DNA from: a virus
Length of the DNA stretch: 40,066 nt
UHGV virus genome: UHGV-0132701
Direction: 5' to 3' (one strand)
Below the pieces are notes generated by a model that was given only the letters and a program-made list of their open reading frames with translations, was not told where the DNA came from and ran no database searches. Positions 13,916-19,643 of this stretch are shown in pieces. The position numbers and the translations under genes were made by a program. Position 1 is the first letter of the stretch. Each line of letters begins with the position of its first letter.

Positions 13916-14415
13916 TATTCGCTCCCGTTATCGCAAGGTTCCTTTCGGTGGAAGTAATTCCAACCATTCCACTTCGCCAACTGGTTACCACTACCAACAG
14001 GCATACGGTTTGGATAACCGGATTTACATTTAGCGGCTTTTGCTCTGTCCATTGCAGACAGTTTGACGAGTCGCTCTTTCCCGTATCTGGCAGTGGTTAT
14101 AAGTTTTGCAGACGCTTCCAGCGCATAATCTGGAGCAATGCGGCAGGCAAGGTTGAAAATGACGGCATTGATAGCGTTATTTGATAAACCGTGTTCATCG
14201 CCTGGATCCGGAGCGACATCGGCATCAGCGAAAATGTAGCCAACGTTGATACCAGGTGACACATCACCGCCAAGCCATTCAGCCATCATCATTTCAAGGT
14301 CGTTGACCCCGTCTTCCATAGACTGCGGTTCGACATCGGTTAACGTGGCATTTGATGCAACACCGAGCTTACGTAATGCTGCAAGGACTAAATCACCCTT
14401 CGTTGTCAGGTTCAT
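13915..14415 (-). CDS. Tail accessory protein, P22 gp4-like (start at MNLTTKGDL)
   Basis: 166 aa from the internal Met, matching P22 gp4 length and its [27 protein letters not shown]-terminal pattern. Confidence 0.8.
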
Positions 14416-14623
14416 CTGCTGCCGCCTTAGGTTTTCGACCAGGCTTTTTACGCTGTTTTTCTTCTGGCTCTGGCTCTGCAACATCCTTCAAAAGGTCATC
14501 AGGATGTGAAAACCAACCAGCATCCAGATATTCCTGAAGCTCTTCTGCTTTCACGATTTCAAAGTCGTAGCCAACGCCTTTCCACTTCTTCATGTCGCCA
14601 TGACGAAAGATCATGTGTGTCAT
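14393..14623 (-). CDS. Small hypothetical protein (76 aa) between coat and gp4, Lys/Pro-rich C-terminus
   Basis: ORF with RBS ggagacaagc before the ATG, directly after the coat-gene terminator hairpin. Confidence 0.4.
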
Positions 14624-14635
14624 GCTTGTCTCCAG

Positions 14636-14660
14636 ATAAAAAAGGGAGCCGAAGCTCCCT
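14636..14660 (-). terminator. Hairpin terminator/attenuator after the coat gene
   Basis: GGGAGC-cgaa-GCTCCC hairpin with a T-run on the minus strand; same cgaa tetraloop architecture as the hairpin at 5401-5427. Confidence 0.45.
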
Positions 14661-14667
14661 CTGGTTA

Positions 14668-15963
14668 TCACGCAGTCTGGTTAGGCAGACCAACACCAAT
14701 TGCCTCTGGTCGTACAGCACATGCTGAATACCACACAGCAATACGGCACTTACCAGACAGCGTGTTGATATCACCCTGCGTTGCGAAGATGCCGTTAACA
14801 CCAATACCAGGAATGCTGAAGGAAGACGTTTTCATGCCAGCAAACAGTTCATGGGTTACCGGGATCGGCTGAGACAGCAGGCGGATTGAGTCATCAGCCC
14901 AGAACACGTTAGCGGTGGTTGTTGCCACGTTCAGAACGTTTACCGGAGTGGCATCAGCAAGAGAGGTGTTTACATTAGCGTAAGCCTTCTCTTCTTTTGT
15001 CAGTGAAGCGTCATCAAGCGCAATCGGCTTCGGCGTGATTTCGATGTGAGTACCATCGATCACACGGGTGATTGAGAAAGTCGCATCATCAGTCAGCACG
15101 TTCTTCGCCATCTGAGACAGGAATTTCACACCAGTGAAGCTGATTTTGTCGCCGCGCTTAAATCCGGTGGTGGAGGATATGGTCACCGTTGCAACACGGT
15201 TGTCGACGTTCTCTTTGTTACCATCGGTATCAAGGGTGTATGCCTGCGGCTTAAACTTCTGCGCACCAGAAACAGTTACACCAGTAGCGGTTGACTTGGT
15301 AACTGCAGGAAGTTTCGGTGAGCGAAGAATTTCATCAAAGCCAGCAATCTGACGCTGAATAGTACCGTTGCGATAAGCTTCTTCAGGAACGCGCCCAAAG
15401 ATGTCACCATCTACCAGGTTGCGGCCTGCTTTGCGGTAATCGTCAGGGTTCAGGAAGTAACTGATGCCCATGTCGCGGTTGAGTTCGCGGGAGAACATCA
15501 GGCGCTCTGCATCAGACACAAAATCCCAGCCAGACAGGCCAGTAGATGGACCAATTGCGCGGGTATCGTGAACAACAAGCGAGCCCATTTCAGTTGCCTG
15601 TTTGGCAATCGCTGACTCAATGTTATTCGCCAGTTTTTTGGCAGATGCCTGGATGCGGCGACGGTAAGAACGCTCATCACGCAGGTCATCTGCACGAAGC
15701 TCGAAGAAATCGTTATCCGGATCACCCATGTTGCATTTCACGGAGAGTTCCAGAATCCCAGTAGCGTTGCCAGTTAAATCCCAGCCAGTCTGAGTTGGCG
15801 CTTCCTGCTCAACAGGCATCCACACGGTGTTGCTTGAACGTTGCATGGATTCTGCCGGAGGGGTGTATTTTGTCACTTTGGACGCCATTGGCGTCAGGTT
15901 CTGGACGGTTTCGATGATTTCATCGATAGCGTAAGTAACTAACTGCCCTTCTTTGAGAGTCAT
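14668..15963 (-). CDS. Major capsid (coat) protein, P22 gp5-like
   Basis: 431 aa; near-identical to P22 coat over most of its length as recalled ([20 protein letters not shown]...[14 protein letters not shown]...[29 protein letters not shown]...). Confidence 0.95.
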
Positions 15964-16030
15964 ATATTGAATACCTTACTTTCTTTATGTGCTATACTAT
16001 TGTTATATCAACATATAGCGCATTAGGGTT

Positions 16031-16552
16031 ATGAGCATGGAACTGAATGAATACTTCGAATACCGCGATGGTTCTTTGGTTTGGAAAGCCAGAAGCTCTG
16101 AATTTTTCAACAACAAAAAGAATCGCAACTATCACAACGTTTGGAATGCAAAACACGCTGGGAAAGTTGCTGGTCTTTTAGAAAGCAATGGATATATCCG
16201 CATAAGAATTAACGGCATTAAGTGGCTAGCACACCGCATCGTATGGGTAATGTTTAACGGAGATATTCCAGAAGGCATGGAAATTGACCATATAAATGGG
16301 ATTCGCCACGACAACAGAATTGAAAATCTTCGTCTTGTGAAAAAATCAGCAAACCAAAGGAATAGAATCAAACTATCTAAAAATAACTCCAGCGGAATAT
16401 CTGGAGTTTACTTTTGCAACACGCGGAAAAGATGGATCGCTCATAAGCGACTGCTTAATGCAAGAGTGCAAAAAGTATGTTCTTCATTCGAAGAGGCGAA
16501 AGAAGTAATCAGAAAGTTTGACGAGGAAAACAACATCACGATATCGAAATAA
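16031..16552 (+). CDS. HNH-family homing endonuclease with AP2-type DNA-binding region, free-standing insertion
   Basis: HNH motif IDHINGIRHDNRIENLRLV...N; AP2-like GVYF...RWIA; AT-rich; opposite strand to, and wedged between, the scaffold and coat genes. Confidence 0.8.
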   Translation: MSMELNEYFEYRDGSLVWKARSSEFFNNKKNRNYHNVWNAKHAGKVAGLLESNGYIRIRINGIKWLAHRIVWVMFNGDIPEGMEIDHINGIRHDNRIENLRLVKKSANQRNRIKLSKNNSSGISGVYFCNTRKRWIAHKRLLNARVQKVCSSFEEAKEVIRKFDEENNITISK

Positions 16553-17464
16553 TTATCGAATTCCTTTATTCAGTTGCGCCTTGAGCTTGCGGTACGTCTC
16601 TACATCCCCTTTGTTTGCTGCCGCTTCCATCTGCTTTTCAATCGCAGAGATATTTGCAGCAACAGCGTGCCCCTGAATGGGTTCATCAGGTAACGGGGCT
16701 TCTGAAACAGGCTTTGCTCGAGGCTTGAGAGTTAAACGTTCTGACAGTCGAGTGAGTTCAATCAGCGCGGATTGCCCGTCCATCGCCAGCAACTGGCGTG
16801 TTTTCTCAGGATTAGCACCAAGGTGATACATGAGAGCGGCGGATTTCTCCGGGAAGAGGCGCATGATGTCGGCACCGACTGCTGGCGGCACCAGTTGCAT
16901 GAATGCATCCTCTTTCTCCTGATAGTCAGGGATATTGAGCTTTTCCGCTGCGTCGTAGTGCTTACGGGCTGCCTCGACGTATTGCGCTGATTGCTGGGTG
17001 AACTCCTGAGTTTTGCGACCCTGCTCGGCGACAGCCTGGCTTCGTGCGTCCATAGCCTTGATCTGCCATTCACTGTTTGCCTGCTGGAAGGCAGCCAGTG
17101 CGCGGCTCTGGTCATAGTCGTACTTAGCCAGCGCATCTTCGGAAAGATAATCGTTAGGGTCTGGTTGTTTTGGTAACTCAGGGTTCACCCGCAGGTGCTC
17201 CGGCAACTCTCCACGCTTAACCGCTTCCATCTGCTGCTCAAGCTCACGCTGGCGTTTGCGTTCGATGCGGCGACGGGCAAATTCAGCATTAGTTGCCGGG
17301 TCTTGTTTTGGTTTCTCATCGTCTTTCAGGACAATCTCGAAGCCTTCTTCCTGACCTGCGATGTCGTTGGCATTATCGACAACTAAGCCATCAGCAGATG
17401 CCGCTGCATGATTGCCGGGCAGGGTTAATTCTTCAGAAGCCTGAATGTCGGTGGTTTGGTCCAT
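16553..17464 (-). CDS. Scaffolding protein, P22 gp8-like
   Basis: 303 aa, same as P22 gp8; acidic N-terminus, helical C-terminus; between portal and coat. Confidence 0.85.
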
Positions 17465-17477
17465 GGTTAACTCTCTC

Positions 17478-19643
17478 TTATTGAGGTGTCTCGGCTACTC
17501 CGCCGGAGGGGATTTGAACTTGACGCATAAGATTCGCGAAATCCATGCGTTGTGAATGAGTCTGGTCTGCATCTTTAAGAAGCAGCTCAGCGTTAGCGCG
17601 AGCATCTTTGCTGCGCTGTTGCTGGAATTGACCTACGAGCTTGAGGTACTCACGCAGTTCTGCCTGCTTGTCGAGGTCCATATTGTTGAAGATTTCTGCA
17701 ATCTTCGCGGCGTTGAGTTGGTTTTGAGCTTCAACCTTGGCAGCTTCAACCTGAATCTGCGCCTGTTGGTTCTCTGCCTTGAGCAATTCAGCCTGACCTT
17801 GCAGAAGGATACCCTGCGCCTGAATTTGCTCTGCTGATGGCTGCTGCGGCTGTTGTTGTGCCTGCTGCACCATCTCCATCTCTTCAGGTGTTTCTGGTTT
17901 CTTCAGCCCCATCATCACCAGTTGCTTGTTCGCGTACTCTCGCATCATCTCGACGCCTTTACCGTCAAGCAGCGTGAAGTATTGCAGCATCAGCATCTGG
18001 AACTCTGGAGTACCTTGCGGAACCTTGGTGAGTAACTCCTGAATCTCTGCGCGGTTCTGTTCCTTCATGCTCTGGAAGGATGGCCCAACGTCCGTATAGC
18101 ACTCATAGCGACCACGAATGTCGTTGAGTGTGACCACATTGCCGGACTGGTAATCGACAACTTGCGCATAGAGTTGAACGTCTTTCTCGCTTCCATCTTC
18201 AAGTGTCAGCGTTACATGACGAGGAACGTCATAAATATCGTTGACCATTGAGGCATAAATCTCGCCATCACGTCTCATTGCGGTAGCCAGGTTATCCTGA
18301 AACACGTATGTCTCAAGGTCTGCCCGCATGTTCAGTTGATTGACGGTATCGAAAGCGACCTGACCATTTGCCGCCTGCGCATCCACGCCAAGACTAGCCA
18401 CCTCTTTCACTGCGTTGGTGGCAGCCTCAAGCATGTAAGCGTTGGCTTGCGGCACTTCAGGGTTTTCCATGTAGGAGATTGGACCAATCGGCAGGTCGTT
18501 ACCGTTTTCATCGGTCCTGTTCTGCAGATAGTACGGATAGTCATCATTTCCACCGTACATGTATTCGTAGCCTTCGATTTGCTCAGGGAAGAAGGTCGGT
18601 TTCTTCTTCGGTGAACGAGCAACAATATCGGCGTTGAACGACATGATCATGTTACGAAGGCGTTGACCGTCTTTCGTCAGCCTTACCACTCCTTCGTAGC
18701 ACTCCTTGTCACCAGCGAATGACCATTCGCCATACACTGGAACGATTGGAATATGCTCTCCGGCTATCTTCTCGCGGTCTTTCAGTATCTGCGTGCAGGT
18801 GATGATCGACTTATACACACGCCGACGCTTCACCTTGCGCTCTGCTACCTTAATGAATCCACGATTAGCCAGGTCGTCGATGACGTCTTTGATATCCTGC
18901 TGGTAATAGCTGACCGGCTCACCTGTCAGCGGGTCGCGGTAGATGAAGACTTTCTCTTTCTTCTCTTCGACCTCGTAATACTCAGCGACGTAGACGACAT
19001 CATTCGATACCCACGGAAACAGCCATGTATCGTTCGGATTCTGGAAAGATGGCAAGGTGTCAGGATCAATACCGTAATCCTCTGCGAACTCTTTCCAGCC
19101 ATTGCGTGACAAAGCGTTAATCACCGTGCAGTGCTTAGCGTCGCTCTTATCCATCTGCTTGCTGTTGGCGTCCCATATGACGTGTGAGCAGGCTTCATGG
19201 ATTGGCAGGCGTCGGATTACCTGATTGTTGCTTGTTGGGTCGTTGTCTTCGTACTGGGTGACCAGACGCCATGCACCAACGCCGGACTCTATCTGCTCAC
19301 GAACGCCAACGTTAACGGCAATTTTTGCCGTGTTATGGCGCATATCAGTACGATACATCCCCATCAGCACATCGGCAGCATCAGGATTAGCGCCGTCTTT
19401 GGGTCGGAAGAGAACGTCGATAGGGTTCCGGCGCATCTCTGCGACCAGTTTCCTGACCACCGGGCGGACAACATCGAATTGTCCGCGATATTGCAGGGTG
19501 GTGTAGTTTGATAGCCAGTCATCCCATTGCGACACTCGGCTAAAATACAGGTCATTTGTCGCCTCGGTTCTGGCTTCATCGCTCGCCATCCAGTCTGCGT
19601 CAAACTTACACAGAATGGAATTGAGTCTGTTTTCGTCGGCCAT
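17478..19643 (-). CDS. Portal protein, P22 gp1-like
   Basis: 721 aa; N-terminus [18 protein letters not shown]...[10 protein letters not shown] and C-terminal Gln-rich barrel segment closely match the P22 portal. Confidence 0.95.

Follow-up and report, generated by a model that had tools for sequence, protein, structure and literature searches.

Homing endonucleases are increasingly viewed as shapers of phage mosaicism and as weapons in phage-phage competition, and, to our knowledge, almost everything understood of their mechanism comes from virulent T4-like phages. Here we analyze a candidate from a temperate phage: a gene for a free-standing HNH endonuclease lying between the coat and scaffolding protein genes of a P22-like, Lederbergvirus-type phage of Escherichia coli (UHGV virus genome UHGV-0132701; the window is the whole stretch of DNA analyzed, 40,066 nucleotides). 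We consider, with a probability of roughly 80%, that this element is, or recently was, an actively homing endonuclease cassette. Cleavage by the enzyme, its exact target, the choice between a nick and a double-strand break, the use of its promoter and its super-Mendelian inheritance are what we infer from the comparisons presented below.

Among described systems, the T4 endonucleases SegF, SegG and MobE are likewise intergenic, occur sporadically among relatives and co-convert their flanks, and nucleotide differences protect the carrier (PMC2988022; PMC2790892). Among phage homing endonucleases, co-conversion and marker exclusion count as established hallmarks (PMC2988022). The window gene departs from these paradigms in that it lies antisense inside a late operon and in that its host is temperate and usually found as a prophage, whereas T4-type hosts are virulent. 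The Seg proteins are GIY-YIG enzymes, whereas the window protein is an HNH enzyme. Furthermore, the T4 enzymes typically cut hundreds to thousands of base pairs (bp) from their own genes, whereas the whole footprint in the window falls within 40 nucleotides (nt) of the insertion, as for intron-encoded enzymes.

In domain architecture the gene resembles the HNH-AP2 homing endonucleases, which join an N-terminal HNH to a C-terminal AP2 domain (Magnani et al. 2004, as cited in PMC10448857). The HNH-AP2 or 'IPA-HNH' genes of ICP1-like phages share this architecture and also adjoin essential structural genes, and capsid neighbourhoods are enriched for HNH-AP2 endonuclease genes (PMC10448857). The HNH of the ICP1 proteins is too divergent for the Pfam HNH_3 profile, whereas the window protein matches HNH_3 strongly and AP2 weakly. 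I-HmuI of Bacillus phage SPO1 (PDB 1u3e) has in common with the window protein an N-terminal beta-sheet region, the HNH core and the D-H...N...N residues. I-HmuI is intron-encoded, carries a helix-turn-helix C-terminal domain and nicks one strand, whereas the window protein comes from a free-standing gene and has an AP2-like C-terminus. HNH endonucleases of T1-like, Rtp-like and Klebsiella siphophages (PHROG 99) are 37-49% identical to it over most of its length and many adjoin head morphogenesis genes, but they occupy different host genomes and different insertion sites.

The behaviour of the locus matches intronless homing by free-standing phage endonucleases, and the element is of an ordinary kind, unsurprising to a specialist. 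In the literature searched we found no description of an element at the scaffold/coat junction of P22-like phages, of its footprint or of its recurrence, and the genome announcement of phages Huey, Dewey and Louie makes no mention of an endonuclease element. The existing GenBank/RefSeq label of the gene is 'HNH endonuclease' (phages Dewey and Louie, and RefSeq prophages).

The insert, its empty site and the coat start

The closest public genomes to the window phage are IME10, Bas106, Dewey, Louie and APC_JM3.2. Of these, Dewey and Louie share the insert, at 99% identity. Bas106, APC_JM3.2 and IME10, together with HZ41, are without it; in these four phages scaffold runs directly into coat, stop and start codon overlapping in the sequence TAATG. 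The net length difference between carriers and empty-site phages is 590 nt, with exact boundaries. A first-pass annotation, which had only the letters of the window and a list of its reading frames to work from, had described an AT-rich, opposite-strand gene wedged between coat and scaffold at 15964-16552, and alignment with the insert-free relatives returned these limits to the nucleotide. GC content is 0.38-0.40 within the insert (39% overall; 0.391 in the open reading frame, ORF) versus ~0.50-0.56 in the flanks.

The gene is intergenic, on the strand opposite to both neighbours, in a late (virion assembly) operon transcribed on the minus strand and two genes away from the large terminase gene; it has no intron or intein host. 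Its stop codon TAA (16550-16552) abuts the scaffold stop tail to tail (TAA-TTA) without any spacer, the scaffold 3' end is unaltered by the insertion, and 67 nt separate the endonuclease start from the coat start. No other endonuclease gene was found in the window (best further tblastn match E 0.02).

At the other side of the insert, coat nt 4-39 form a patch with 14 substitutions in 36 sites relative to all four empty-site phages, and the set is identical in all carriers. The protein changes are A2T, N4K and L13I; the remaining substitutions are synonymous, including the replacement of GGT-CAA by GGG-CAG. When the window was compared with the near-isogenic Bas106, scaffold showed 0/912 differences and coat beyond nt 39 showed 3/1,257, versus 14/36 in coat nt 4-39, a clustering with a Fisher p of 3e-24 (14/36 versus 3/2,169 elsewhere in coat and scaffold). 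The local gene conversion of the structural module that the first-pass annotation had anticipated is seen here as this tract of 36 nt, converted or recoded, at the 5' end of coat. The footprint is sharply bounded, consisting of the 590-nt insert and the 36-nt conversion tract, and it offers a two-base immunity prediction (GGT-CAA to GGG-CAG). Furthermore, Bas106 and Dewey/Louie make up a near-isogenic carrier/non-carrier pair in a temperate and genetically tractable P22-like system; they belong to one laboratory collection and grow on E. coli K-12.

We propose that the mobile cassette would comprise the HNH/AP2-like endonuclease gene, its own divergent control region and the 36-nt recoded stretch of coat. 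The enzyme would recognize the conserved scaffold-stop/coat-start region in endonuclease-free P22-like genomes and would nick or cut there, the core of the site being probably in coat codons 4-13, around GAAGGTCAA. Recombination with a genome that has the endonuclease, that of a co-infecting phage or of a resident prophage, would mend the break, copying the 590-nt insert and obligatorily co-converting ~39 nt at the start of coat. Through GGG-CAG and the other changes, the converted tract would immunize carriers against their own enzyme, and the interrupted TAATG junction would possibly help.

The encoded protein matches Pfam HNH_3 (PF13392; 78 bits, curated cut-off 24.8), with E 3.9e-22 and an alignment that spans profile positions 2-46 of 46, and PHROG 99, 'HNH endonuclease' (E 1.3e-50). 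I-HmuI is its only significant PDB sequence match. In the sequence alignment D86-H87, N99 and N108 fall on the catalytic and metal residues D74-H75, N87 and N96 of I-HmuI (I-HmuI numbering counted from the printed 1u3e alignment), and these residues do not vary among 43 homologues or among the four junction orthologues. An AlphaFold2 model (predicted local distance difference test, pLDDT, 89) also gave I-HmuI 1u3e as the top Foldseek PDB match, with probability 1.00, E 4.5e-3 and ~28% identity across 84 aligned columns. The HNH part is predicted to fold as a beta-beta-alpha-metal unit with a preceding putative DNA-binding beta-sheet, as in I-HmuI; the global template modelling score (TM-score) to 1u3e is as low as 0.34 because only this N-terminal sheet/HNH part aligns. 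The free-standing HNH endonuclease of the first-pass annotation is borne out by these matches, and the catalytic residues, whose loss would have spoken against it, are intact.

The AP2 part of that annotation was only partly upheld. In its favour, AlphaFold2 predicts strands at amino acids (aa) 126-129, 134-141 and 144-150 and a helix at aa 153-166, Foldseek matches this C-terminal unit to the AP2 structures 3igm, 9hqv and 6sy0 (probability 0.54-1.0, but E > 0.01), and aligned homologues have PF00847 at the same position. The Pfam AP2 match of the window protein itself, however, is sub-threshold (15.7-18.2 bits against a cut-off of 33.3, with only 19/54 profile positions), and 'AP2-like' is therefore the accurate wording. 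The protein matches no NCBIfam model, and in PADLOC it matches only 'homing endonuclease' ('HEase') models. By its domain identity and intact catalytic residues, the gene is a predicted free-standing HNH_3/I-HmuI-like endonuclease with an AP2-like C-terminal fold.

Distribution and linkage of the cassette

The junction is present in 218 of 5,426 complete E. coli genomes, and 20 of these 218 carry the endonuclease gene, most copies being prophage-borne. Among 153 distinct P22-like junctions in IMG/VR, 142 were empty, nine carried a gene of the type found in the window (type A) and the remaining two carried one each of two other endonuclease types; with these two set aside, carriers are 9/151. 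A gene shared by all related phages as part of their core would have been at odds with homing, and the gene is sporadic instead. An equivalent gene does recur at this place in several diverged P22-like lineages, as described below, but it is always a minority, presence/absence element.

The patch travels with the gene. In 81 distinct E. coli-lineage haplotypes, the squared correlation (r²) between patch sites and endonuclease presence is 0.91-1.0, while all 64 common single-nucleotide polymorphisms of the flanks have r² <= 0.09 with the gene, the nearest of them lying 31 nt into scaffold and 123 nt into coat. For 11 of the 14 carrier haplotypes the nearest neighbour by flank sequence is endonuclease-free. 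Nucleotide diversity (π) is 0.0035 in insert and patch, 0.020 in coat and 0.010 in scaffold, which makes the cassette 3-6 times less diverse than its flanks. Together, the linkage pattern and the low diversity indicate that the cassette is a discrete unit, younger than its surroundings and moving independently of them.

These data bear on a passive history, in which the gene would be a 'moron' acquired once, its patchiness the product of ordinary homologous recombination, and the patch a leftover boundary of the donor mosaic. The flanking genes are indeed highly mosaic, and the amino-acid changes of the patch match a natural donor-like lineage. However, such a history leaves unexplained how linkage falls from 1.0 to ~0 within 31 nt on one side while a 36-nt tract is fixed in all carriers, how GGG-CAG has persisted in four lineages despite saturation at their other synonymous sites, why related endonucleases have repeatedly occupied exactly this junction, and why the catalytic residues are invariant. 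We consequently regard it as improbable.

A perfect linkage of patch and gene holds in IMG/VR but breaks down among the complete E. coli genomes. Eight prophages there have no endonuclease gene and combine a TAATG junction and coat nt 1-11 of wild type with coat nt 12-39 identical to the carrier patch. Examples are L525, L527, L528 and L529 (E. coli ECONIH6, AVS0578, PEC301 and NMBU_W05E18; coat start at locus position 1600), in which the tract is equivalent to window 15925-15952. The four alleles examined have one common boundary, and their coat genes fall in a single sub-lineage marked by 3 inserted nt near coat nt 416. Alleles of this kind probably stem from a single ancient event, in which either the gene would have been lost or homing would have been aborted with the target converted and the gene left uncopied. 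The eight prophages are predicted to hold resistant alleles, and their composition suggests that patch nt 12-39 may be sufficient for immunity.

One copy is decayed. In the prophage of E. coli EEC_W5 (L524 1295-1809, CM130020.1) a 1-nt deletion, equivalent to window 16256, frameshifts the endonuclease gene and splits the ORF into pieces of 85 and 102 aa, the cassette being otherwise 98-99% identical. Empty, invaded, predicted-resistant and decayed alleles together form an unusually complete natural series, in which all stages of the proposed homing life cycle are represented.

This frameshifted E. coli copy would also fit an inactive relic. A related proposal is a non-homing nuclease like the terminase-associated HNH of cos phages (HK97 gp74 type), given that HNH proteins close to head and packaging genes sometimes act as packaging cofactors. 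The window copy is intact, however, its family is under purifying selection, and the family is HNH_3/I-HmuI-like with a predicted sequence-specific DNA-binding domain. P22-like phages package by headful, not cos. Furthermore, the gene is missing from ~90% of otherwise near-identical phages, including the plaque-forming Bas106 and IME10, so it is not needed for packaging. With this absence and the position of the gene between scaffold and coat, we rejected a terminase-associated packaging cofactor, and we hold the whole class of relic or packaging explanations to be highly improbable.

Orthologues at the junction and the likely target

In a collection of 5.8 billion proteins, the three nearest relatives of the window protein are 82%, 74% and 59% identical to it, and the genes of all three lie at the scaffold/coat junction of other P22-like phages and run antisense, as in the window. 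Among these orthologues synonymous sites are saturated, with a proportion of differing sites (pS) of 0.69-0.93, while the nonsynonymous proportion (pN) is 0.10-0.26; the ratio of the nonsynonymous to the synonymous rate (dN/dS) is 0.055 for the closest pair, the window and the 82% orthologue. A dN/dS this low amid saturated synonymous sites indicates that the endonuclease protein has been kept functional.

Two more diverged HNH/AP2-like types occupy the same junction, also antisense, in further P22-like contigs. The type B protein (178 aa, 43% identity; L300 392-928, minus strand) is the reciprocal best BLAST partner of the clade, and the type C protein (182 aa; L467 399-947, minus strand) has 36% identity. 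By BLAST score, the junction-resident clade of types A and B groups together, above the T1-like, Rtp-like and Klebsiella siphophage relatives. With types A, B and C at one site, the scaffold/coat junction is thus a recurrent home for this endonuclease family. No close relatives in addition to these came to light when species-representative genomes and metagenomes were scanned for other lineages at the junction. Of the orthologue loci, L007 had no megablast match among 50,697 phage records, and L013 had only a match of ~70%, over coat.

The coat start of empty junctions is conserved. The 142 empty IMG/VR junctions have GGT-CAA (127), GGC-CAA (8), GGT-CAG (6) or GGG-CAA (1) and never GGG-CAG, and across 47 representative empty lineages the third positions in the codons of the GGT/CAA region vary unusually little. 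All four type-A lineages, on the other hand, have GAAGGGCAG (GAA-GGG-CAG) at coat codons 5-7. The type B carrier has GGA-CAG at coat codons 6-7, and the type C carrier keeps GGT-CAA and has lost coat codon 2. No copy of the wild-type target sequence is present anywhere in the window. In the lineage of the 74% orthologue, comparison with the nearest empty relative gave 8/30 differences in the first 30 nt of coat versus 75/1,238 beyond (p 4e-4), an equivalent of the patch that is weaker than that of the window. These patterns point to a recognition or cleavage site in the conserved coat start, with a candidate core around GAAGGTCAA; we lean towards placing the target core within coat codons 4-13, and the synonymous changes of the patch would confer self-immunity.

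The patch differs at 6/39 positions from the coat 5' end of the 82%-orthologue lineage (L012), and its amino-acid changes match the natural coat N-terminus MTLKEGQ... of L378, an endonuclease-free member of that lineage. The simplest reading would be that phages of the E. coli lineage acquired the gene from a donor of this kind, together with ~39 nt of donor coat, by co-conversion.

A different function has also to be weighed, that of a gene domesticated for competition or superinfection exclusion. Made by the prophage or early in an infection, from the gene's own sigma-70-type extended -10 and antisense to a silent late operon, the enzyme would cut incoming endonuclease-free P22-like relatives, to the advantage of carrier and host, and homing would be a by-product. 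The antisense orientation in every lineage seen (types A, B and C), the conserved -10-like element, the location of most copies in prophages, the resemblance of the endonuclease-free patch allele to an escape allele and the inclusion of related 'HEase' models in PADLOC all agree with such a role, as does a purifying selection that, over saturated synonymous divergence, is stronger than expected for a purely decaying parasite. An actively homing element should be under the same selection, however, and the low prevalence (~9%) and the frameshifted copy argue against a strong benefit. We consider exclusion a possible but unlikely function; it is compatible with homing and does not exclude it. A further reading, doubtful in our view, takes the endonucleases of types A and B (43-100% identity) for an old clade, specific to this junction, of prophage-expressed weapons. 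Transcribed from promoters of their own at a time when the late operon is off, they would cut the coat start of superinfecting endonuclease-free relatives. If true, this reading would imply an arms race, visible as endonuclease-free 'escape' coat alleles (ECONIH6 type).

Several points weigh against homing itself. Free recombination and selection in P22-like phages could scatter a neutral or beneficial cassette without any endonuclease drive, and part of the patch could be due to selection on the initiation of coat translation, where coupling has been replaced by a new Shine-Dalgarno sequence. A consensus sigma-70 promoter scan gave no promoter for the endonuclease gene; the putative -10 element was not called because no -35 is present. 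The endonuclease-free patch alleles apparently trace back to one event, so they count as one observation and not as eight. Finally, the cut sites of the characterized free-standing T4 endonucleases are usually hundreds of bp or more away from the endonuclease gene (PMC2988022), and the footprint found here is within 40 nt of it. Nevertheless, the precise empty site, the sporadic presence, the intact catalytic residues and the conversion tract support the intron-less homing that had been proposed for this gene, and homing is the reading we prefer.

Control region and neighbouring genes

The features of the locus are collected in Table 1. The insertion breaks the scaffold-coat translational coupling of a classic assembly system and the phage is viable, which is relevant to P22 capsid engineers. 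The new coat Shine-Dalgarno sequence would take over from translational coupling to scaffold. The Shine-Dalgarno sequence and, on the other strand from coat, a TGnTATAaT-like -10 are conserved at the 82% and 74% orthologue loci, the -10 as TGCTATAAT and TGCTATACT, respectively, and the 59% locus has a TATAAT; from this conservation we infer the endonuclease promoter of Table 1. An alternative endonuclease start, the ATG at 16037, is better spaced from the AGGG.

Table 1. Position, strand and basis of assignment of features at the scaffold/coat junction and in its surroundings (window coordinates)
Feature	Coordinates	Strand	Basis or remark
Coat (major capsid) gene, P22 gp5 homologue	14668-15963	minus	Pfam P22_CoatProtein E 4e-165; left flank of insert
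Recoded/co-converted patch, coat nt 4-39 (codons 2-13)	15925-15960	minus	Predicted target and immunity region
Inserted DNA, 589 nt	15964-16552		Between coat and scaffold genes
Divergent control region, 67 nt	15964-16030	both	Sequence; part of cassette
New coat Shine-Dalgarno, GTAAGGT	15973-15979	minus	9 nt upstream of coat ATG
Imperfect inverted repeat (hairpin)	15987-16023		Fold energies -11.5 and -11.7 kcal/mol, z -3.8 and -3.1; overlaps putative -10, just upstream of coat ribosome-binding site
Putative extended -10 promoter of endonuclease, TGCTATACT	15990-15998	plus	Read by eye, and conservation
Endonuclease Shine-Dalgarno, AGGG	16025-16028	plus	Sequence
Putative homing endonuclease ORF, 173 aa	16031-16552	plus	Pfam HNH_3, PHROG 99; sole ORF of insert
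HNH_3 (beta-beta-alpha-metal) nuclease core, aa 66-110	16226-16360	plus	Pfam match
Catalytic D86-H87	16286-16291	plus	Alignment to I-HmuI 1u3e
Catalytic N99	16325-16327	plus	Alignment to I-HmuI 1u3e
Catalytic N108	16352-16354	plus	Alignment to I-HmuI 1u3e
AP2-like C-terminal domain, aa 121-166	16391-16528	plus	AlphaFold2 and Foldseek; putative DNA-binding
Scaffolding protein gene, P22 gp8 homologue	16553-17464	minus	Pfam Phage-scaffold E 2e-178; right flank of insert
Portal gene	17478-19643	minus	Very strong Pfam match

The inverted repeat of the control region has counterparts at the equivalent place in the orthologue loci, with hairpins of 10 bp in L013 (p 0.0004), 8 bp in L007 (p 0.009) and 7 bp in L012 (p 0.07). 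Its sequence differs in each type-A lineage, so that structure, and not sequence, is conserved. A shared operator, for example a LexA box, was considered for these intergenic palindromes and rejected, as no sequence is common to the lineages. Possible functions of the repeat include an operator and an RNA processing or stability element; lying over the putative promoter, it could be autoregulatory or an RNA-processing element and could also safeguard coat expression.

A second hairpin lies inside the endonuclease gene (16385-16408; z -5.0) and is followed by a T-run on the late-operon strand. We rejected it as an attenuator of late transcription between scaffold and coat: its fold energy is -14.5 kcal/mol, versus -9.9, -8.1 and -5.4 kcal/mol in the orthologues, so it is unconserved and probably incidental, coinciding with SGxSG codons.

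Next to the coat ATG, the terminal ~20 nt of the cassette (GTAAGGTATTCAATAT, 15961-15979) resemble the wild-type scaffold 3' end and Shine-Dalgarno sequence (AAAGGAATTCGATA; Bas106, L002 ~2864-2885). By this resemblance, the cassette may hold a diverged remnant of a donor scaffold terminus.

Directly downstream of coat there is a 92-aa ORF (14393-14671, minus strand) with no Pfam match. Between coat and the gp4-like gene, the interval differs in both its length and its annotation from one phage to another, as seen in Dewey, Bas106, APC_JM3.2 (where a repeat_region is annotated) and IME10.

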